Of a stretch of DNA of 64,000 nt, positions 1 through 12,099 are shown one piece after another; the stretch's first letter is position 1, and each line of letters starts with the position of its first letter. Under the pieces are notes generated by a model. That model did not search any database and was not told the origin of the DNA. It saw only the letters and a list, made by a program, of their open reading frames with translations. The translations under genes were made by a program, and so were the position numbers. The stretch comes from an uncultured Actinomycetes bacterium (lineage in GTDB: Bacteria; Actinomycetota; Thermoleophilia; UBA2241), in assembly GCA_963709345.1 (NCBI GenBank), contig CAVPVX010000007.1, positions 32,001-96,000 on the forward strand. Reading direction: 5' to 3'.

Positions 1-865
1 CGACGGTCAGCTCTGGAGCGCGCACGCCCATGCACGGTTGCGCGCGCCCGTAGGCGTCCACGCTCACGCCGTGCCCGGCGCCGCAGGCGAAGAGCACGTC
101 GCCCGGCGGGCCCATGAACTTGCCGCCGAACTCCGCCATGCTCCGCGCGGTACTCCTCCGGCCGGCGGGTCAGCACGGCCAGCACCTGGTCCGGGTCGAG
201 CCGCAGCCGCCGGATCAGCTCGTTCTTCGCCTCGTCGTCGCGCCGGTTGCGCAGGTCGAACGACATCGAGTAGCCGGGCGGCTTGTCCATCCAGGGGATG
301 GTGGCCGCCCAGGCCTCGAACTCCTCCACCTCATCGCGGTTGGGCGGCAGCAGTGCGCGCCTTGAGCACGAAGGGCACGCTGCGGTCGAGCAGCAGGTCC
401 ACCCCGCGGCGGAACTGGGCGAAGGAGCCGGGCACGCGCGTCACCGCCTCGTAGGACTCCGCGCGCATGCCGTACACCGTGACCTCGACGGTCACGAGCG
501 GCGGCACGCGCGCCAGCAGATCGGCCAGCTCCCGGCGTGATCCGCCGCGCGTTGGTGAAGAGCAGCACCTTCAGCCCAAGGCGCCGGGCGTAGAGGTAGA
601 GCTCCTCGAAGTCGGGGCGCAGCAGCGGCTCGCCGCCGGTGTAGCGGACCTGCAGGCAGCCGAGCGCGGCGGCCTCGTCGAGGATGTCCTCGACCTGCGC
701 CGTGGTCAGCTCGCGGGCGCGCGCCTCACGGTCGCCGGCCGGCAGGTTGATGCAGCAGTGGATGCAGTCGTTGTCGCAGCGCTCGGTGAGCTCGATGTCG
801 AGCTGACCGAGGCGCGAGCCGAGCGGCCGTTCGAGGCGCGTGACGCGGCGGACGTAGTCGCTCAT
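1..865 (-). CDS. Radical SAM/SPASM peptide maturase #2 (partial, runs off the left edge; apparent frameshifts)
   Basis: ATG at 865 gives MSDYVRRV...ELTERCDNDCIHCC (CxxxCxxC), YTGGEPLLRPDF and LFTNA. Other frames continue the protein to the SPASM start LFACGAGHGVSVDAYGRAQPC at about 1-110. Confidence 0.9.
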
Positions 866-881
866 CCTCGCGCCGCTCGGG

Positions 882-1061
882 TCAACTCGACGAGCAACTC
901 TGACAGGGGTCGCCCGTGCCCGCGCAGGGGCAGCCGAAGGCGCTCCCCGGGTCGAACGAGGACTGCGGGTTCTTGCAGGTCGTGAGCACCGCCTCCCGCG
1001 GATCGGTGTGAACGAGGATGCTCAACTCGGGCCGCTTCCGCTGCGAACGCTCCTCAGGCAT
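882..1061 (-). CDS. Putative RiPP precursor peptide B (59 aa, Cys-rich C-terminal core)
   Basis: MPEERSQRKRPELSILVHTDPREAVLTTCKNPQSSFDPGSAFGCPCAGTGDPCQSCSSS. RBS GAGGGGGG precedes the ATG at 1061. It overlaps the stop of the upstream rSAM-kinase gene, and its leader aligns with precursor A. Confidence 0.85.
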   Translation of the reverse strand: MPEERSQRKRPELSILVHTDPREAVLTTCKNPQSSFDPGSAFGCPCAGTGDPCQSCSSS

Positions 1062-3179
1062 CGTTCCCCCCTCTTGAGTAGTACCGCTTGTCCACGAGGC
1101 GCTCGATCTCCGGAACGATCGCCCCGCTCCTGTCGAAGCGCATCTCGTAGGCCGGGACTTCGGCGACGAGGCGCTCCACCACGTCGAAGGTCCTGTGCCA
1201 CCACTCGGCGGTGACGAAGGGACGGATGATGCAGGCGAGGATCCGCCCGGCAACATCCTTGCGGTCCTTCAGCGGCACGAGCTCGTTGCGCTCGTCCTGC
1301 CGCAGGAAGACGAGCGCCCGCAGCGGCGCCTGCGACGCCGAGACGAGCGGCACGGTGCCGTGGCTCCACGTACCGTGGATCCAGAAACCGGGGCCGGCGG
1401 CCGGTCCCGCGGCTTGCGACGGCACCGGCGGCGGCCCTTCCGGCCACCGGCGCACGATGTTGCGGTCGTCGCAGAGCACCTCCACGCGCTCACCCAGGCG
1501 CTTCGCGCAGCAGTTCCATGGTCGTGGACTTGCCGGCCTCCGAGTGACCGATGAAGCAGCAGGCCGGCGCCGTCCAGCACGACGGCGCCCGAGTGAAGAA
1601 AGAGCCCGTCACGGTCGGCCAGCACGCGCGCCAGCAGGATCTGGTCGGTCGGGAACATGGTGACCGAGGCCAACCCTCCGCGTGCCCAGGCGTCGGAGCG
1701 CGTGACGTCGTTGTAGATGCGCGCCCGAGTGTGGTCGTCGTTGAACGTCACGACCCGATGCAGGTCGCCGGGCACGCCCTGCCGTCGTCGGCCGGCGAGA
1801 TGCCCAGGTAGACCCACGACGAGGCCTGCCGGTAGATCGGCCCACGGCGGCCGCCGGTACACCTCGCGACCCAGCTCGCGGCCGTCGCAGATCCGGCAGG
1901 CCGAAGTGGTGCCGGAGCCGGATGACGGGCAGGCCGTCGGCGCCGGCGGCCGCGCCGTCCGCATCCGGCGCCTCGAACGCCCGGAACTTCCTGAGAAGGT
2001 GTCCTCGGCGATCGGCCGGTCCGCGTCCACCTGCACCGTCATGCCGCCGATCTGCCAGGTGCGCCGGTGCTCCCGGCGCCAGTCGTCCTTGAAGCGCCGC
2101 GCCTCCTTCGCCACCTCGCACAGATACTCCACCTTCGCGCCGTGCCGGCCGTGCTCCAGGTACCCGTACACGCCGCACCAGCGGCAGTCGTCGCGCAGGT
2201 CGCAGGAGGCGCACCCTTCGAGATACTCGACGCCTCCGCACGCGCGGTCGGCCACAGCCGGGAGCTCCTCCTCCCAGATGCGCTCGAGCGCGCCCGGCGC
2301 GATGCCGCCGGCACCCCGCAGCGAGAAGCGCAGGGCGGGGTCCTTGATGAAGCTGCAGTGCGCGACGCCGCCGTACGGGTCGACGTGAAGGTCGCGGCGG
2401 CCCTCGATGCAGCGCGCGTACACGCGGTCGTCGCCGGCTGCGCCGCGCACCCCGCCGCAGGCGACGTCCGCGGCCGCTCTCGGCCACGCCGCGTCGTCGG
2501 CCGGCACGGGCTCGTCGAGGGCGATCACGTCCGCCGGGTCCAGGCGCTGCCGCGCGATCTCCGCGTTCCGCGCCGCGTCGCCGCAGGCGCTCATGAAGAG
2601 CCACGCCGCGCCGACGCGCCAGTGCGGGCTCAGCGACGCCGCCAGGTCCTTCATCCGCCTCCCACTCGTGCCAGTTGTCGCGCATGGGGATGAGCTGCAC
2701 GGTGAAGCCGGCCCCGGCCTCCGCAGGCGCGCGAACCCCTCCATGGTGGCGTCGAACGACCCGGGCGTCCTGGTGACGTGGTCGTGGACCTCGGCGGTCG
2801 CCCCGTACAGGGCGACCATCTTGTTGCCCTTGCGCGTCAGCAGCTGGGCGATCTGCGGGGTGATCAGCGCGCCGTTGGTGTTGAGCGAGTAGCCGACCGC
2901 CTTGCGCGTGACGTAGTCGAAGAGCTCGGAGAAGTCCTCGCGGAGCATCGGCTCGCCGCCGGAGATGGACCAGCGGCGCGTGCCGAGCGCGCGAGCCTGG
3001 TCGACGACCGCGCGCCACTCGTCGGTGGTCAGCTCGGCGGCGCGCTCGTCCGGCGTGTCCGCGGCCCACAGCCAGCAGTGGCGGCAGCGGTTGGAGCATC
3101 GATACGTGAGGTCGATGGAGGCTTCAAGCGGGAGGCGGGGCGACGCGGCGCAGCTAACTGACCGTCGACGTCGCTGCAC
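1054..3179 (-). CDS. Radical SAM/SPASM maturase #1 fused to a C-terminal HprK-like P-loop kinase domain (several apparent frameshifts; start approximate)
   Basis: DLTYRCSNRCRHCW, ISGGEPMLR, LNTNGAL. SPASM cysteines RCIEG..VDPYG..HC and CASCDLRDDCRWC..YLC. Then LHSGAV, Walker A GHSEAGKST (1523-1549, shifted frame), LCDDRN and GTWSHG. Ends with ORF 1054..1485. Confidence 0.85.
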
Positions 3180-3375
3180 TCGCCACGGTCGACGAGGCCG
3201 TCAGGTTCGGAGCCCAGTCGTGCAGTGCGCGCATGACCGTGGTCGCTGAGGCCGTCACGGCGGCCGGGAACAGCCCCTGTACGCCGGCGGTCTTGCACGC
3301 CGTCAGCACGCACTCCTCCGCACCGGCGCGCTGCAGCACGATCAGCCGTGGCGTCTCCCAGGATCTGGTCTCCAT
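3154..3375 (-). CDS. Putative RiPP precursor peptide A (C-terminus uncertain, possible frameshift)
   Basis: METRSWETPRLIVLQRAGAEECVLTACK... with RBS AAGGGAG. W-x-x-P-x-L leader and E-x-VLT-x-CK motif shared with precursor B. An alternative frame gives CAHCTTGLRT* at 3233-3201. Confidence 0.75.
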   Translation of the reverse strand: METRSWETPRLIVLQRAGAEECVLTACKTAGVQGLFPAAVTASATTVMRALHDWAPNLTASSTVASAATSTVS

Positions 3376-3480: not shown

Positions 3481-3876
3481 TCAGGCGCGTGCGTCTCTCG
3501 TCTGCTCGGGAAACGCCCGCAGGAGCGCCCTGTCGAAGGTGAGCACCTCCGTATCCAGGCGCTCGGCCGCGGCCACGAAGACCGCGTCGTAGACAGCGTG
3601 GTCACAGCGCAGCGCAAGCCCCACCGCGGCCCGCCACAGGTCCTGGGTAGGCAGCACACGCTCGACCAGGGACTCTCCGTGGTCGAGCGCCCCCAGGAAC
3701 TCGGCGGGGCCGACGCTCAGCCTCCTCACCCACTGCCACACCACGTTGCCGTATTCGGCAAAGAAGAGGTCGGGGACGACGATGGAGTCCGCGCTGGAGA
3801 GCGCCTGCCACGCCGGCTCGCGGTGCTCCTTGGCCCCCAGCACGGCGTAGGCGATCACGTTGGTGTCGACGATCAC
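3481..3876 (-). CDS. vapC: PIN-domain toxin (VapC/FitB family)
   Basis: MIVDTNV N-terminus, E..NV, YDAVFVAAA and LTFDRAL. 131 aa, directly downstream of an RHH antitoxin. Confidence 0.92.
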   Translation of the reverse strand: MIVDTNVIAYAVLGAKEHREPAWQALSSADSIVVPDLFFAEYGNVVWQWVRRLSVGPAEFLGALDHGESLVERVLPTQDLWRAAVGLALRCDHAVYDAVFVAAAERLDTEVLTFDRALLRAFPEQTRDARA

Positions 3877-3882
3877 GAGCAG

Positions 3883-4107
3883 TCAGCGCCGGCCCTCGTC
3901 GAGCCAGCCGTCCACGTCGCTCGCCGCTATCTCGGCCTGGTGAGCCCACCGCTCGCGGATCGCCCCGAGGACCTGATGCCGCGTGGGATACCGCGCCGCC
4001 AGGGTCGTGCGCAGTTCCTGCTCGAGAGAACGGCCGTGCGCATCGGCGGACGCCTTGATGCGCGCCAGGAGTTCGTCGGAGAGCCGTCGTATGGTCACGG
4101 AAGCCAT
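3883..4107 (-). CDS. Ribbon-helix-helix antitoxin (FitA/Arc-like)
   Basis: MASVTIRRLSDELLARIKASADAHGRSLEQELR is the typical FitA-like N-terminus. 74 aa. Confidence 0.9.
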   Translation of the reverse strand: MASVTIRRLSDELLARIKASADAHGRSLEQELRTTLAARYPTRHQVLGAIRERWAHQAEIAASDVDGWLDEGRR

Positions 4108-4289: not shown

Positions 4290-6208
4290 TTGGCCGACGC
4301 GCCACGCAGACCCAAGATCGCCGACGCCCTGCGCCTCGCCGACGCCGTGCGCCTCGTCTGGCGCGCGGCGCCCGGCTGGACGGCGCTCAACGCGGTGCTC
4401 GCCGTCCTCCAGGGCATCGTGCCGCTGCTCGCCGTGTACCTGATGAAGCTCATCGTCGACACGGTGACGGCCGGCATCGCCGACGCGGACCACGCCGCCG
4501 CCTTCCGCACCGCCGCCATGTACGTGGCGCTGGCGGCGGCGGTGGGCCTGGCGGCGGCGCTCCTGCGCTCGCTCGCCGCACTCACCTCCGAAGCGCTCGG
4601 TCAGGTCGTCACCGACCACGTGAGCGACCTCATCCACGCGCAGTCCATCGCCGTCGACCTCGAGTACTACGAGGACCCCGCCTACTACAACACGCTGCAG
4701 CGGGCGCAGGACGGAGGCGCTCGTCCCGGCCCACCAAGATCGTGAGACGGACCTGCTCACGACCGGCGCAGAGCGGCATCTCGCTGGTCTCGCGATGGCC
4801 GGCCTCCTCTTCACCCTCCACTGGAGCATGCGGCCGTCATCGTCGTCGTGGCCGGCGATCCCGGGGCCTGGGTGCGCCTGCGCTACTCGCGGCCGGCTGT
4901 ACCACTGGCAGCGCAAGCGCACGCGAGACCGAGCGCCAGGCCTGGTACTTCCACTGGCTGCTCACCGCGCGGTCGCACGCCAAGGAGGTCCGGCTCTTCG
5001 AGCTGGGCGAGCTCTTCCGGCCATCGTTACGCGCGACCTGCGCACCGTGCTCCGCGGCGAGCGCATCGGGATCGCCGCGGCAGCGCGCCCTCGCCGATGT
5101 CGGACGCCGGCGCCGTGGCCGTCGCTCGCCATCTTCGGCACCGTTCGCGTACATCGCCTGGCCGCACGGTTACCGGCAGCGATCACGCTCGGCGATTGGT
5201 CATGTACTACCAGGCCTTCCAGACGCGGCCGAGCAGTCCATGCAGGAGCGTCCTCAGGGCCTCGCCGGGCTGTACGAGGACAACCTCTTCCTCACCTACT
5301 ACCACGAGTTCATGGACCTGGAGCCGCGGGTGCTCGCGCCGAGCGGAGCCGGCGCCCGTGCCCGCGGCCGATGCGCGCAGGCGTACGCTTCGACGCCGTC
5401 GACTTCCGCTACCCGGCCGCCGACCGGACGGCTCTGAGCGGGATCGACCTCACCATCCGCCCCGGCGAGGCGTGCGGCCCTCGTCGGCGACAACGGCTCG
5501 GGCAAGACGACGCTGGTCAAGCTGCTCTGCCGGCTCTACGACCCGTCGGCCGGCAGCGATCACGCTCGACGGCGTCGATCTGCGCGAGCATGGACTGCCG
5601 AGCTGCGCCGCCAGATGAGCGTCATCTTCCAGGACTTCGTCGCAGTACCAGCTGACCGCGCGCGAGAACATCTGGGTCGGCGACGTGGATCTGCACCCGG
5701 ACGAGCCGGCCACTCGGGCGGCGGTGGAGGCCGCCGCCGGACGCCGGCGCAGACCGGCGTCATCGGCGGCCTCCGCGACGGCTACGACACCGCGCTCGGG
5801 CAAGTGGTTCGAGGACGGCGAGGAGCTCAGCATCGGCGAGTGGCAGAAGGTGGCGCTGGCCCGCGCCTTCCTCCGCGACGCGCCGATCCTGGTACTCGAC
5901 GAGCCGACCAGCGCGCTCGACCCCGAGGCCGATGGCAGGTGTTCGAGCACATCCGCCAGCTCGCCCAAGGCCGCGCGGTCGTGCTCATCAGCCACCGATT
6001 CAGCACCGTACGCAGCGCCGACCGCATCACATCCTGGATCGAGGCGGCACGGATCGTCGAGAGCGGCACGCACGAGGAGCTGCTGGCGCTCTCGGGAAGG
6101 TACGCGCAGATGTACGAGGTGCAGGCGCGCGCCTATTCCGTGGAGCCCGGCGCACCCCTGGGAGACGGCGCCGAACCCCTCGCCTCCGGCGGTCCACCCG
6201 CACAGTGA
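4290..6208 (+). CDS. ABC exporter, fused permease/ATPase (many apparent frameshifts)
   Basis: TTG start after AGGAGG. N-terminal TM segments, [17 protein letters not shown], Walker [10 protein letters not shown] (about 5485-5512), [24 protein letters not shown] and ISHRFSTVR are split across frames. Confidence 0.88.
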
Positions 6209-6267
6209 AGCGGCTCACCGCGAGCCGGGCGGCCGAAGGGCCGGGCGCCTGAGGCAGCTCGGTTGCG

Positions 6268-6459
6268 TCAGATCGGCGGCGCGAACGCGACGAAGAACGC
6301 GGCCAGCGCCACCATCAACCCGGTGACGACTGCGGCGGCGAGCGCCGCACCGCCCTCGGCCTTGTCGTCGGGGAGCTCACCGGCGGCCCACAACTCGAGC
6401 GCGGTCGCCTCCACGTACGGATCGCCGGCCTGCAGATGCTCTCTGGTGCCCATGTCCAT
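6268..6459 (-). CDS. Small hypothetical membrane protein (63 aa)
   Basis: RBS GAGGGG, C-terminal hydrophobic helix [25 protein letters not shown]-rich third codon positions. Confidence 0.55.
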
Positions 6460-6667: not shown

Positions 6668-7846
6668 TCAGGCGCCGGCGCGGACGCGAGCGAGAAGCGC
6701 GTCGACGAGCTGCCCCTCGGGCAGTGTCTCGACGCGCTCGCCGTGGTCGAACAGCACGCCCTCCCCGGCCCCGGCGGCGATGCCGTAGTCGGCGTGCCTG
6801 GCCTCTTCGGGGCCGTTGACCCGGCAGCCCATGACGGCCACCGTGATCACCCGGCGGGCCAGCGCCGGCTCGGCGCCGAGCCGGCGCTCGACCTCCTCGG
6901 CGAGGCCGACGATGTCGACCTCGGTGCGCCCGCAGGTGGGGCAGCTGATCACGTCGGGGCCGCGCCGCCGGAGCCCGAGCGCGGCCAGGATCTGCCAGGC
7001 GACCCGGACCTCTTCCACTGGGTCGCCGGTCAGGCTCACGCGGACGGTGTCGCCGATGCCGTCGGCCAGCAGGGCGCCGATGCCGACGGCGCTCTTGATC
7101 GTGCCGCTCCAGACCGTGCCCGCCTCCGTCACACCAACGTGCAGCGGAGCATCGCTGCGGCCGCGCAGGAGCCGGTACGCGGCGATCGTGTCCGGCACCG
7201 ACGACGACTTGACGCTCAGCTTGTACGCCCTGAAGCCCCACTCCTCGAACTGCCCGGCCCAGCGCAATGCCGCTTCGACGAGCGCCCCCGGAGCATCGCC
7301 GGCGGCGCGGTCGCGCAGATCTCGCGGCAGCGACCCGGCGTTGACTCCGATGCGGATCGCAACGGGCACTTCGCGCACGCCGGAGCCGGCCGGCACCGCC
7401 GTCCCGGCGGCGGCGCGAACGATCTCGCGCACGTGCTTCTCCCCCATCGTCCCGGGGTTGATCCGCACCCCGGCGGCCCCGGCGTCGATGGCCGCCAGCG
7501 CCAGCCGCCAGTCGTAGTGGATATCCGCAATGATGGGCACGCGGGGCGCGGCGCGGTCGCCGTCCGCGGCCGCGGCGCGAGCGGTCGCCGGCGCGTCGCC
7601 GGACGGCGCGTCCGTCACGCGGCCGAGCGCCGGAGCCTCGCGCACGAGGTGCGCGAATGCCGGCGCCTCTTCGGCGCTCGGCAGGCTGACGCGGACGATC
7701 TCGCAGCCCGCTGCAGCCAGAGCGCGCACCTGGGCGAGCGTCGCTTCCGCGTCGCCGGTCCTGGTACAGGTCATCGACTGCACGGCGACCGGAGCGCCGC
7801 CGCCGACCGGCACCGGACCGACCATGAGGCGGTGCGCGCTACTCAC
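6668..7846 (-). CDS. ispG: 4-hydroxy-3-methylbut-2-en-1-yl diphosphate synthase
   Basis: VQSMTCT, IADIHYD, RINPG, IRIGVNAGSL, LHVGVTEAG, GIGDTVRVSL, SCPTCGR, VMGCRVNGP. GTG start at 7846. Confidence 0.97.
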   Translation of the reverse strand: MSSAHRLMVGPVPVGGGAPVAVQSMTCTRTGDAEATLAQVRALAAAGCEIVRVSLPSAEEAPAFAHLVREAPALGRVTDAPSGDAPATARAAAADGDRAAPRVPIIADIHYDWRLALAAIDAGAAGVRINPGTMGEKHVREIVRAAAGTAVPAGSGVREVPVAIRIGVNAGSLPRDLRDRAAGDAPGALVEAALRWAGQFEEWGFRAYKLSVKSSSVPDTIAAYRLLRGRSDAPLHVGVTEAGTVWSGTIKSAVGIGALLADGIGDTVRVSLTGDPVEEVRVAWQILAALGLRRRGPDVISCPTCGRTEVDIVGLAEEVERRLGAEPALARRVITVAVMGCRVNGPEEARHADYGIAAGAGEGVLFDHGERVETLPEGQLVDALLARVRAGA

Positions 7847-8888
7847 GCGGGGTCCTGCGCGACGCCGCGGGCTGAGGCTCGCCGGCGTGCATGCGGTACC
7901 ACTCCCACGTCTCCGCCAGTCCCTCGGCGAGCGTCGTGTCGGCGTCCCAGGCCAGCACCCAGCGGCCGCGGCCCACGTCGGCGCACGAGCGCTTGATGTC
8001 GCCCTCGCGGGCGGGCCCGTGCTCCACCGACAGCGAGACGCCGGTCTGCGCTTCGATCTCTCCGACGAGCTGCAGGAGGCTCGTCTCCAGCCCGGAGCCG
8101 ACATTCACGACTGACGAGCCCGTCAGCGGCCGCTGCAGAGCGCGGGCGATCGCCCACGCCACGTCGCCCACGTACACGAAGTCCCGGGTCTGCGCGCCGT
8201 CGCCGAATATGGTGACCCCGGCCCGGGCGGGCGAAGCCCCACCCGGCTCACCGCCACCCACCGCCGACGCGCCCTCGGCGGCGGCGGCGAGAAAGCGGCT
8301 GATCACGCCGGAGTAGGCCGACCCGGGATCCTGCCGCGGGCCGAAAACATTGAAGAAGCGGAGGCAGACGGCGGTGATCTGGTGTGCGTCACCGGCGCTT
8401 ACGCACGCCTCTTCGGCGGCGAGCTTGGCGCCGGCGTACGGGCTGAGCGGTCGTGCCTGCATGGTCTCGGCGACGGGCACCTGCGCCGCGTCGCCGTACA
8501 CCGCGCAACTCGACGCCAGCACGAACCTCGGCACCTCGGCGTCCACGGCCTCACGCAGCGCGTTGACCGCTCCGCCATGCGTCACCGAGTTGCAGCCCAG
8601 AGGATCCTCGAGCGAGAGGGCGACGGAGGGGATCGCCGCCAGGTGGACGACCGCGTCACAACCGGCCACGGCGTCGCGCATGCGCACCTCGTCGCGGACG
8701 TCTCCCTCGATCACCTGCAGGCCGCCGCCGTACTCGGCGGCGAGCCGCCAGGCGTCGTCGAGGTTCTCCTCCCTGCCGGTGCTGAAGTCGTCGAGCACAC
8801 GCACGTCGTCGCCCCCCGTGAGGAGTGCGTCCACCACGTGAGAGCCTATGAACCCGGCGCCGCCGGTGACGAGAGTGATTCCGCCCAT
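7839..8888 (-). CDS. NAD-dependent epimerase/dehydratase (UDP-sugar 4-epimerase-like)
   Basis: VTGGAGFIGSH, SPYAGAK (YxxxK), LRFFNVFGPRQDP, TRDFVYV. Confidence 0.93.
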   Translation of the reverse strand: MGGITLVTGGAGFIGSHVVDALLTGGDDVRVLDDFSTGREENLDDAWRLAAEYGGGLQVIEGDVRDEVRMRDAVAGCDAVVHLAAIPSVALSLEDPLGCNSVTHGGAVNALREAVDAEVPRFVLASSCAVYGDAAQVPVAETMQARPLSPYAGAKLAAEEACVSAGDAHQITAVCLRFFNVFGPRQDPGSAYSGVISRFLAAAAEGASAVGGGEPGGASPARAGVTIFGDGAQTRDFVYVGDVAWAIARALQRPLTGSSVVNVGSGLETSLLQLVGEIEAQTGVSLSVEHGPAREGDIKRSCADVGRGRWVLAWDADTTLAEGLAETWEWYRMHAGEPQPAASRRTPRE

Positions 8889-10766: not shown

Positions 10767-12099
10767 TCAGAGCGGGCCGCCGGCGGCTTCTCGAGCGAAG
10801 CGGCGCGCTTCGGCATCACTCTCGAACACGTCGTCGAGGCTTTCGACCGGCTCGTCGCCCAGCCAGGTGAGGCACTTCTCGACGACTTCGGCGATGGCGA
10901 GAAACGCGAGTCGCCCGGCGAGGAACGCCTCGACCGCGACCTCGTTCGCGGCGTTGAGCACGATCGGCGCCGCGACGGTGCGAGGCCGGCACGGTGTCTC
11001 GATCCCGGGCGCCGCGGAGCCGGATGCGGCCGAGTCTCCACGCGCTTCGCACTCGACGAACGCGGCCTTCTTGCCGGCTTCCTCGGCCAGTTCGAGACAC
11101 CGGAAGGTCGCCGTGTCGGGCCGTTCGAAGGCGATCTGCGTGGCGAAGAGGTCGAGACGGCGCACCTGCGGCAGCAGCGGCCGGTCCGGGTAGCCGAGGG
11201 CGTAGCCGATCGGCGTGCGCATGTCGGGGACGCCGAGGTGCGCGAGGACGGCGCCGTCGGAGAAGCGCGCCATGCTGTGCACCGTGCTCCGCGGATCGAG
11301 CACCACGGTGATGTGCTCGTAGGGCACGCCGAAGAGGTAGTGCGCCTCGATCAGCTCGAGGCCCTTGTTCATGAGCGTCGCAGAGTCGACGCTGATCTTG
11401 GGACCCATGGTCCAGTTGGGATGGGCAAGCGCCTGCTCGGGAGTGACGGCGGCCAGGTCCACGGCCTTGCGGCCGCGGAACGGGCCGCCGGAGCCGGTCA
11501 GCAGCAGTTCCTCGACTGCTGTTCCGGGGTCTGCGCCGGCGGGGGGCGTCGGCGCTCGCGGCGCCTCGGCCCGCGTGGAGGCACTGGAAGATGGCGCTGT
11601 GCTCGCTGTCGACGGGCAGGATCAGCGAGCCGGTACGCCGTGCCGCGTCGAGGACGAAGGGGCCGCCGGCGACCATGCTCTCCTTGTTCGCCAGAGCCAG
11701 CGTGGCGCCGACCTCGAGAGACGCCATCGTGGCGCGCAGACCGGCGGCGCCGACGATGCCGTTGAGCACCATGAGCTCGGCGCCTTCCGCGGCGGCGGTA
11801 GCGGCCGCCGCCGAGATCAGCTCGTACACGCCGGTCTCGCCGGCGTGTACCGTCAGTTCCGGCATGCGCGTGGACGCTTCTGCCGCGGCCCGCGCATCGT
11901 GCAGACAGATGACACGCACCCCGTGCGCGGCCGCCTGTTCGAGCAGGGCGGCCACGCCGCTGCCGGCGGCAAGCCCGACGAGCCGGACGGACGGCACGGC
12001 CGGCAGCACCTCGAGAGCCTGCCGGCCGATCGAGCCGGTGGCGCCCAGTATGAGCAGGTGTCTGGCCGCAGTCTCCGTTATGGCCGCAGTCTCCTTCAT
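10767..12099 (-). CDS. dxr: 1-deoxy-D-xylulose 5-phosphate reductoisomerase (apparent frameshift near 11520-11560)
   Basis: LGATGSIG, LALANKES, PVDSEHSAIFQC in one frame. LLTGSGGPFRG, HPNWTMGPKISVDSATLMNKGLELIEA and LNAANEVAV in the other. Confidence 0.95.

Follow-up and report, generated by a model that had tools for sequence, protein, structure and literature searches.

The DNA studied here is a window of 64,000 nucleotides (nt) from the assembled genome of an uncultured Thermoleophilia bacterium (GenBank assembly GCA_963709345.1, contig CAVPVX010000007.1, positions 32,001 to 96,000 of the forward strand). Coordinates are those of the window unless a contig or another locus is named; loci are denoted by L numbers. 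Close to its left end, the minus strand encodes a radical SAM/SPASM maturase of the class here called rSAM1, joined in one gene to a kinase-like domain of the ScmC family with the fold of HPr kinase and phosphoenolpyruvate carboxykinase (PEPCK), and accompanied by two small genes for peptide precursors. The landmarks of the fusion gene are as follows.

1054..3179, minus strand: fusion gene, rSAM1 (radical SAM/SPASM maturase) plus ScmC-family HPr-kinase/PEPCK-fold domain; ~708 codons, eight frame breaks.
3074..3098, minus strand: CxxxCxxC, binding the radical SAM [4Fe-4S] cluster by motif; Cys codons 3098, 3086 and 3077, equal to C29, C33 and C36 of the homolog P0002.
2118..2413, minus strand: SPASM region with seven Cys; codon starts 2411, 2357, 2213, 2204, 2186, 2177 and 2120.
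2040..2131, minus strand: junction, ..EYLCEVAKEARRFKDDWRREHRRTWQIGGM.., the last SPASM helix passing straight into the first strand of the kinase-like part; one frame, no insertion or deletion (indel).
1054..2069, minus strand: ScmC-family domain (Pfam 38.1 PF27840), a beta-rich N-terminal half and a P-loop half with HPr-kinase/PEPCK fold.
Codon 1595, minus strand: conserved His of the kinase-like domain.
1523..1549, minus strand: Walker A P-loop GHSEAGKST, Lys at 1531.
1465..1470, minus strand: Asp-Asp pair (LCDDRN), counterpart of the metal-binding DD of HprK-family kinases by motif, not by alignment.
1357-1374, minus strand: GTWSHG.

From the GTG at 3179 the minus-strand frame translates as a radical SAM enzyme, DLTYRCSNRCRHCW..., and the SPASM end, ...YLCEVAKEARRFKDDWRREHRRTWQIGGMTVQVDADRPIAEDTF, is part of a single stop-free translation running into the kinase-like part. 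Third-position GC content of the coding frame is 0.87-1.00 in 90-nt scanning windows starting from 3150 down to 2070, dipping to 0.77-0.83 in two of them at ~2745-2700, the site of two frame breaks; because it stays high across the junction, the coding frame is kept there. Below 2025 third-position GC indicates repeated switches of the coding frame, and the kinase-like motifs LHSGAVVLDG, FIGHSEAGKSTT, VLCDDRN and GTWSHG are all present, spread over three frames. Every landmark is retained in the window: the three radical SAM Cys, the seven SPASM Cys, the His, Walker A, Asp-Asp and GTWSHG. The sequence-only reading had taken the SPASM part to run in frame into the kinase part of a protein of about 700 amino acids (aa); the uninterrupted translation, the third-position GC and the intact relatives bear this out, and the corrected length is 708 codons.

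The fusion of radical SAM and kinase-like parts is genuine, with no hidden stop and restart. In two genomes of the same genus it is one unbroken frame, of 486 aa in L002 (408/457 identical to the window, 89%; a masked run of N lies upstream) and of 400 aa, ended by the contig edge, in L004. The kinase-like domain was found in 9 of the 41 genomes searched, the window's own genome counted, and three other genomes of the genus encode it as a stand-alone protein of ~308 aa starting M..RYYQIAGITVQVESD (e.g., L005). These stand-alone proteins begin upstream of the window's internal Met, so that the ATG at 2043-2041 is not a start codon; by the same start position the TWQIGG before that Met, homologous to YYQIAG of the stand-alone proteins, belongs to the ScmC-type domain. 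A database search with the L002 frame returned 1354 proteins at an expectation value (E) <=1e-5 among 8000 scored; among the matches listed, 120/120 align over >=90% of the query, which spans the junction, and bear the PF27840 label, and 110 of these 120 bear PF04055 too. Of 54 loci taken from public genomes, 34 have a single open frame of at least 620 aa with an N-terminal CxxxCxxC; among them are the loci of the isolates Methanocella sp. MCL-LM (L061) and Desulfosediminicola flagellatus IMCC35005 (L065), whose genomes are complete. Contigs of relatives assembled from a public run span 1992-2300 with no indel relative to the window. The full-length model of P0002 (predicted local distance difference test, pLDDT, 90.4; predicted template modelling score, pTM, 0.87) has SPASM helix 354-374 running directly into strand 375-380, in a block with pLDDT of at least 92, and the modelled fusion is rigid and without linker. 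Confirmation in full-length homologs and by structure prediction had been proposed along with the fusion itself; the 34 public loci, the matches listed, L002 and L004 all read through, and the model shows an ordered helix-to-strand junction.

The frame breaks of the window copy were placed by frameshift-aware alignment to the intact homolog P0005, with frame changes at ~2723, 2655, 1991, 1887, 1838, 1780, 1559 and 1501 and none between 2655 and 1991; 556/676 residues are identical and the corrected path is stop-free. The identical eight breaks recur with P0002 as reference. A ninth, at 3144, appeared with P0002 only, lies in the poorly conserved first residues and adds a stop; it was not counted. 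Five of the eight are extra bases and three are missing bases, none of them in a homopolymer. At 5/8 sites the contigs of relatives, mostly <95% alike, carry an indel in the correcting direction. Of the neighbouring genes listed further below, the second radical SAM gene, rSAM2, has three breaks, and the frame is also interrupted in the ATP-binding cassette (ABC) gene and in the third radical SAM gene; the PqqD gene, which is short, and the peptidase gene have no break.

Elsewhere in the genome rpoB and rpoC are single open frames of 1253 and 1552 aa, and the assembly is therefore not poor throughout. Scanning all 11 contigs by codon usage with a Viterbi method gave 567 putative frame breaks, of which 254 are concentrated in 28 of 306 ten-kb bins; such hot bins make up 6 of the 21 terminal bins versus 22 of the 285 others (the latter by subtraction), and the bin of the fusion gene is a hot island with 13 putative breaks. 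GC content was considered as a cause of the hot spots and rejected (0.694 in hot and 0.695 in cold bins). Further hot islands of the assembly include C7:0-10 kb, C7:470-480 kb, C11:220-230 kb and C2:170-180 kb.

Given an error-dense island around the breaks and undamaged rpoB and rpoC genes, an error of assembly is more likely than decay, and the eight breaks are most probably local errors of the assembly consensus. It is unlikely that they are real mutations in a decaying pseudogene cluster. Decay would account for the density of breaks, eight within 2.1 kb plus three in rSAM2, where rpoB, rpoC and the PqqD and peptidase genes are intact, and for breaks of both signs, insertions and deletions, outside homopolymers; the public reads leave room for it as well, as the two public runs hold only 0.05 of the window's words and their contigs, coming from relatives, show intact frames of those relatives. 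Against decay stand the stop-free corrected frame relative to P0005, a third-position GC that is still 0.9-1.0, an identity of 82-90% to orthologs with every catalytic residue retained, and the clustering of breaks, genome-wide, in few bins and at contig ends, which points to assembly quality and not to selection. Genes in such islands should not be called pseudogenes without reads. Hardly conceivable is a further rival, by which the fusion would be an artefact, an indel error just before 2043 having merged two genes whose stop and start overlap as ATGA: the internal Met sequence does read ATGA, with TGA in the +1 frame, and the region is prone to assembly error, but the public loci and all the matches listed read through the junction, TWQIGG has its homolog in the stand-alone proteins, the related contigs have no indel over 1992-2300 and the junction is ordered in the P0002 model.

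The N-terminal half has the features of a SPASM-type maturase. The radical SAM model PF04055 scores 64.7 bits (cut-off 29.5) on the window frame 1269-3179, and the Cys residues of CxxxCxxC are conserved at >=90% in the homolog alignment. The SPASM pattern for two auxiliary iron-sulfur clusters, C..G....C, CxxCxxxxxCxxC, C, is found, with all seven Cys also in the window; C260, G273, C278, C326, C329, C335, C338 and C357 (P0002 numbering) are invariant in 90 sequences. The Pfam SPASM model PF13186, which is short and frequently low-scoring, reaches 16.8 bits (cut-off 21.5) on the L002 ortholog. Solved structures closest by sequence are SkfB (6efn, E 2.6e-11), BlsE and PqqE; those closest by fold are SkfB, SuiB, BlsE, CteB and PqqE. 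The best NCBIfam match of this half is the mycofactocin maturase, an enzyme that acts on a C-terminal residue. SkfB, CteB, SuiB, PqqE and MftC are alike in CxxxCxxC, in the seven-Cys SPASM region and in dependence on a PqqD-type recognition element (RRE) for peptides made on the ribosome and then modified post-translationally (RiPPs); the difference is that no match of these enzymes extends over the kinase-like half.

The kinase-like domain occurs once in the genome (one ScmC-type domain in a whole-genome search), and local Pfam and NCBIfam scans gave no significant name for its pieces in the window, TIGR04249 having no match on the 143-aa piece. For the domain of intact homologs the best NCBIfam match is ScmC TIGR04249 (E 1.2e-7 to 4.3e-11), followed by the models for HprK-related kinase B and HprK/P, below their cut-offs; the PF27840 label was precomputed on database homologs, with the name 'ScmC' taken from Pfam 38.1. 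The L002 domain of 352 aa, modelled from an alignment of 90 rows (pLDDT 92.4, pTM 0.90), retrieved ATP-dependent PEPCK first in Foldseek (E 8.7e-8). In a fold search independent of Foldseek, PEPCK 1ii2 matched over 254 residues, covering both halves (Z 11.3), and the HprK/P chains 1ko7, 1jb1, 1knx and 3tqf matched the P-loop half over 125-130 residues (Z 10.1-10.6, root-mean-square deviation 3.0-3.7); the next unrelated fold had Z <=5.9. Sequence identity over the fold-aligned parts is 14-21%, and 20-21% with the best HprK/P chains. His530, the second His (His622) and G, S, G, K, S and T of the P-loop are invariant in 90/90 homologs, and the acidic pair is D or E at both positions in all 90. 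The HPr kinase/PEPCK-like signature claimed from the letters has thus held, in fold as in the His, P-loop and acidic pair.

Fold, Walker A and acidic pair are what the ScmC-family domain shares with HprK/P and ATP-dependent PEPCK; its N-terminal half is unlike that of HprK/P, there is no HPr-related gene context, and scores stay below the family cut-offs. A profile sequence search of solved structures returned radical SAM enzymes and, via the P-loop, ABC transporters only, with no HprK/P. 'HprK-like P-loop kinase domain' is a fair description of fold and site; membership in the HprK/P family is not established.

The putative substrates are encoded on both sides of the fusion gene.

882..1061, minus strand: precursor B, 59 aa; leader ..RKRPELSILVHTDPREAVLTTCK, four more Cys in the core, end CQSCSSS; family hidden Markov model (HMM) E = 1e-9.
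3201..3375, minus strand: precursor A; leader METRSWETPRLIVLQRAGAEECVLTACK intact, core frame-broken; family HMM E = 8e-10 on the leader.

With its ATG at 1061-1059, precursor B shares 8 nt with the end of the fusion gene and stands behind the ribosome-binding site GAGGGGGG; its leader has KRPEL, without W. The leader of precursor A contains WETPRL. The core reading of precursor A is uncertain: the frame as read continues to 3154, and a second frame, ..GCSRPP, stop, RPQRPRSCAHCTTGLRT, stop, would end ~22 nt before the fusion start.

The family HMM was built from small frames beside the fusion and kinase-like genes; it finds 55 small frames in 45 loci, equal to 52 unique sequences, with the pattern W-x-x-P-x-L-x-V-L-x-R-x-x-P-E-E-x-V-L-x-x-C-K followed by a variable stretch with two to four Cys. 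W5, P8 and L10 of the leader are conserved at >=90% in 44 precursors. Terminal Ser is present in 47/52 unique precursors, compared with 10.4% of 12,107 small frames of the same loci, an excess whose very small binomial p overstates the case because the precursors are related. From the last Cys to the terminal Ser the spacing is 6 residues in 29/47, 7 in 9/47 and 8 in 5/47. Ten precursors compared with curated families at E up to 10 gave no match, ScmA-type TIGR04252 included; the only signals, below threshold, are those of the leaders with two models for lasso leaders, NF033534 at E 0.03 and NF033524 at E 0.27. That the terminal Ser of precursor B is a plausible phospho-acceptor, as the sequence-only reading suggested on the strength of its SSS end, is strengthened by the finding that such an ending is typical of the whole family.

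Three known systems share parts with this family. According to PMC6993621, the HprK-family kinases PsmK and PadeK phosphorylate the C-terminal Ser side chain of the pseudomycoidin and paeninodin lasso precursors, PsmK D158A D159A is inactive, and the nucleoside triphosphate (NTP) transferase PsmN attaches a hexose to the phosphate; the precedent cited for HprK-like kinases of lasso clusters is therefore in print. Compared with PadeK and PsmK by their published description, the window family likewise has an HPr-kinase-type P-loop enzyme in a RiPP cluster, a discrete PqqD/RRE, a WxxP leader, an ABC exporter and Ser-ending substrates, and some relatives of the window cluster also share the NTP_transf_5 gene. 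Points of difference are the union of the domain with a radical SAM/SPASM enzyme, Cys-rich cores and a wider taxonomy; the loci read showed neither a lasso cyclase nor a B2 protease.

The second system comprises the clusters for linear polyphosphorylated peptides (LPPs) of Popov et al. 2026 (LppK, LppB, LppS, LppN, LppD). As set out in PMC13381572, their toolkit consists of a discrete RRE, the HprK-like LppK, a leader peptidase that resembles signal peptidase I of the archaeal type, an NTP transferase and an exporter resembling MsbA; the leader motif is [Y/W]xxPx[L/V/I], with the WxxP form in paeninodin-like peptides; and both LPP and paeninodin-like families are reported from Bacillota only, co-located with capsular polysaccharide loci. 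Toolkit, leader motif and polysaccharide placement are shared with the window family, the radical SAM enzymes apart; by the main-text description the LPP leader is of the YxxP type, the core is not rich in Cys and radical SAM enzymes are absent.

The third is the SynChlorMet cassette (TIGR04249 ScmC, TIGR04248 ScmD, TIGR04250 ScmE, TIGR04251 ScmF), which shares the ScmC-type domain, the PqqD relative and two radical SAM/SPASM enzymes. It is mirrored by the loci with a stand-alone kinase (kinase, rSAM2, rSAM3, PqqD); the fused loci add a third radical SAM enzyme, joined to ScmC. The PqqD proteins score 30.9-34.7 bits and the radical SAM proteins 47-97 bits, below the cut-offs of ScmD, ScmE and ScmF (100, 400 and 400 bits); with all four SynChlorMet cut-offs missed widely, this is a sister system and not the SynChlorMet cassette. 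No mention of SynChlorMet was found in the open-access and bioRxiv literature searched. The family is best regarded as a variant, with radical SAM enzymes, of the phosphorylated peptides of paeninodin/LPP type, and as sister to the SynChlorMet cassette.

By analogy with these systems, the fusion is probably a bifunctional RiPP maturase whose kinase-like domain phosphorylates the C-terminal Ser. The N-terminal half is a radical SAM/SPASM enzyme with three predicted iron-sulfur clusters, and the C-terminal half a ScmC-family domain that has the signature of an ATP site in full, with His, Walker A and acidic pair. The fusion, the fold, the conserved motifs, the precursor family with its Ser ending and the neighbouring genes are established; the activity of the kinase, where it acts, the cross-link chemistry and the order of the steps we infer as follows: PqqD would bind the WxxPxL leader; every radical SAM/SPASM enzyme would form one Cys-derived core cross-link; the fused rSAM1 would take the extra Cys near the C-terminus; the kinase-like domain would pass phosphate from ATP to the C-terminal Ser side chain, like PadeK and PsmK; and a protease would cut off the leader and an ABC pump export the product. 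Speaking for the assignment are the toolkit shared with phosphorylated RiPPs, the coupling of rSAM1 to the kinase-like domain across the loci and the number of core Cys, which fits one radical SAM enzyme per core Cys: at least three Cys follow the CK motif in 28/32 readable fused-locus precursors versus 3/10 stand-alone-locus precursors, a correlation that counts non-independent relatives and has no phylogenetic control.

Several observations weigh against this assignment. Scores of the domain fall short of the cut-offs of all HprK-type models: 19.7-42.7 bits versus a cut-off of 125 for TIGR04249 (an equivalog model; on L002, L005, L022 and L046), 11.7-23.1 versus 240 for HprK/P TIGR00679, and 11.7-29.6 versus 33.3 for PF07475. 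Five of the 52 precursors end otherwise, three of them in T, C or Q, one in P (from an assembly with a broken frame) and one, a fragment, in G; the one ending in Cys, from D. flagellatus (L065: 2101-2271, plus strand), accompanies a kinase-like domain that looks intact. No NTP_transf_5 gene above cut-off was found in the window's genome. The terminal Ser could instead serve a radical SAM enzyme, the mycofactocin maturase being one that acts on a C-terminal residue, or the protease or the exporter. Finally, LppK (PMC13381572) polyphosphorylates Ser3 of the core and not the C-terminus, so the phosphorylation site is not fixed by family.

With regard to the Cys ending in L065, a dead kinase was considered as its cause and rejected, the P-loop being intact and the acidic pair reading ED. 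The precursors of L060 and L065 both have CS in place of CK, both domains have ED in place of DD, and the two form an outlying branch of the domain tree.

One rival reading, unlikely in our judgement, is that the ScmC domain binds ATP and the peptide without phosphorylating the terminal Ser, its target being another Ser or Thr of the core or its role that of an ATP-dependent clamp for the fused radical SAM enzyme; the terminal Ser would then be a cross-link acceptor or a signal for protease or exporter. The Ser3 site of LppK (PMC13381572) speaks for this, as do the abundance of Ser and Thr in the cores, the almost exclusive fusion of rSAM1 to the ScmC domain, which fits substrate holding, the fixed distance of the last Cys from the C-terminus (six residues in most Ser-ending precursors) and the scores of the domain, which fall under the cut-off of every HprK model. 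We prefer phosphorylation of the terminal Ser: a full catalytic signature in 90/90 homologs would be unusual for a pure scaffold, the terminal Ser is the only near-invariant residue besides the leader and the Cys, and PadeK and PsmK offer a direct precedent (PMC6993621).

More doubtful is a transient role, in which phosphorylation of the terminal Ser only activates it, the phosphate being lost by elimination or displacement and a C-terminal ring being closed by the Cys six residues upstream; kinase and fused radical SAM enzyme would then share these few residues as their target. Phosphorylation of Ser/Thr ahead of elimination is the route of class III and IV lanthipeptide synthetases, and the fixed Cys-to-Ser spacing, the co-occurrence of rSAM1 with the extra Cys near the C-terminus and the linkerless, rigid fusion of the P0002 model can be counted in the same direction. 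Opposed to it are the 94 neighbouring proteins scanned, in which no lyase-like domain was seen; the fate of the phosphate in paeninodin-type peptides, where according to PMC6993621 it stays and is extended or glycosylated; and the presence in 4/14 loci of NTP_transf_5, which acts after phosphorylation in paeninodin-type systems. A more far-reaching proposal, to which we give equally little credence, is an undescribed RiPP class from Thermoleophilia to methanogenic archaea, in which kinase and radical SAM enzyme were welded together to serve a shared C-terminal stretch and the phospho-Ser is joined to the Cys six residues upstream, by the fused radical SAM enzyme or by elimination, closing a ring.

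Phosphorylation is rare among peptide natural products, and this family brings a toolkit of HprK-type kinase, recognition protein, protease of the signal-peptidase kind and exporter together with two or three radical SAM/SPASM enzymes. The comparative data yield a sharp hypothesis, with the terminal Ser as the putative phospho-acceptor and one radical SAM enzyme per core Cys. The window copy, frame-broken in an error-dense stretch of assembly, is for that reason a poor exemplar; intact clusters exist in two cultured organisms.

At database scale the domain has 2127 cluster representatives in a 50%-identity library at E <=1e-3, 129 of them at <=1e-30; among the best 150 of the 2127, proteins of ~300 aa are mixed with ~20 of 570-680 aa. 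The range covers many anaerobic bacterial phyla and methanogens. No paper on a fusion of radical SAM and HprK/ScmC was found in the open-access and bioRxiv literature searched. The novelty first ascribed to the fusion was overstated: the architecture as such stands, but it is abundant in databases, has a Pfam family, and is represented in the window by a frame-broken copy. The family is abundant, catalogued and biochemically uncharacterised, and the window gene is a frame-broken member of it.

Radical SAM genes of the loci were classed by BLAST against three reference classes (rSAM1, rSAM2, rSAM3) and sorted cleanly. The fused partner is rSAM1 in 34/34 fused loci; outside a fusion rSAM1 was seen as a separate gene directly before the kinase gene (L059), as a cut second copy (L020) and as a weak match (L051). 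rSAM2 follows the kinase-like gene in 16/20 stand-alone loci and is present in most fused loci, and rSAM3 lies further on. In a quick tree of 49 domains, which left out five distant rows, two partial ones and one with a stop, fused and stand-alone forms interleave; at least 12 changes are needed, and well-supported branches force 6 of these. The neighbourhood of 14 fused loci was scanned with the 94 most central of 158 frames, 64 distal, short or overlapping frames being dropped, and gave the following counts.

PqqD: 6/14 fused loci.
Peptidase_S24: 4/14 fused loci.
NTP_transf_5: 4/14 fused loci.
ABC exporter: 4/14 fused loci.
Methyltransferase: 3/14 fused loci.
Polysaccharide-related genes: 7/14 fused loci.

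Archaeal-type signal peptidase I is the best NCBIfam match of 5/6 peptidases (25-45 bits, cut-off 51.85); for the peptidase-GNAT fusion of the window's cluster it is the best peptidase match, below the GNAT models.

Downstream of the fusion gene the order is precursor B, rSAM2, PqqD, protease-GNAT, a VapBC pair and the third radical SAM/SPASM gene; upstream of it, precursor A is followed by another VapBC pair and a divergent exporter. The neighbours of the fusion gene and its precursors are as follows.

1..865, continuing leftward to ~contig 31711, minus strand: rSAM2, second radical SAM/SPASM gene; breaks at 532, 357 and 146.
L011:11367-11672: PqqD gene, intact, 66.1 bits.
L011:10263-11237 (contig C7 30263-31237), minus strand: signal-peptidase-like (Peptidase_S24-type) protease fused to GNAT, intact.
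L011:9519-10190 (contig C7 29519-30190), minus strand: VapBC pair between the peptidase and the third radical SAM gene.
Left of that VapBC pair in L011: third radical SAM/SPASM gene, frame-broken.
3481-4107, minus strand: VapBC pair between precursor A and the ABC exporter; PIN domain 3481-3876, FitA-like ribbon-helix-helix antitoxin 3883-4107.
4290..6326, plus strand: divergent ABC exporter (membrane + ATPase), broken into pieces; the right-hand coordinate is where the last open frame ends and is no settled stop.

rSAM2 is identical to its intact ortholog L002:2302-3438 at 334/371 positions. In the exporter, frame switches lie at ~4884, 5386, 5471, 5640 and 5930; ABC_tran scores 34.5 bits (cut-off 25) on 5685-6326, and ABC_membrane reaches only E = 0.048 on 4290-4745. 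The peptidase-GNAT fusion suggests N-terminal acetylation of the core after leader removal; other loci have the protease alone or with other extensions. A frame of the NAD-dependent epimerase type lies nearby (7839-8888, minus strand).

Polysaccharide flanks were seen in L021, L025, L029, L044, L053, L061 and L065, with genes for Wzy, Poly_export, exosortase with PEP-CTERM, MurJ, UDP-glucose dehydrogenase, epimerase and Wzz. L060, from a metagenome-assembled genome (MAG) of the Desulfobulbaceae, encodes, in addition to the fusion, a second HprK-type protein, which stands alone after the ABC exporter (10988-11893, plus strand; Hpr_kinase_C E 6e-7). In L021, from a MAG of the Acidobacteriota, an insertion sequence element with a DDE_Tnp_1 transposase (6937-8151, minus strand) lies between the fusion gene and rSAM2. 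Near-identical domains (branch lengths 0.08-0.2) stand under different phylum labels, Aminicenantes versus Eubacteriales, in L033/L034 and in L049, L052 and L057; the conflicting labels point to recent transfer, or to errors of binning or labelling in the MAG records.

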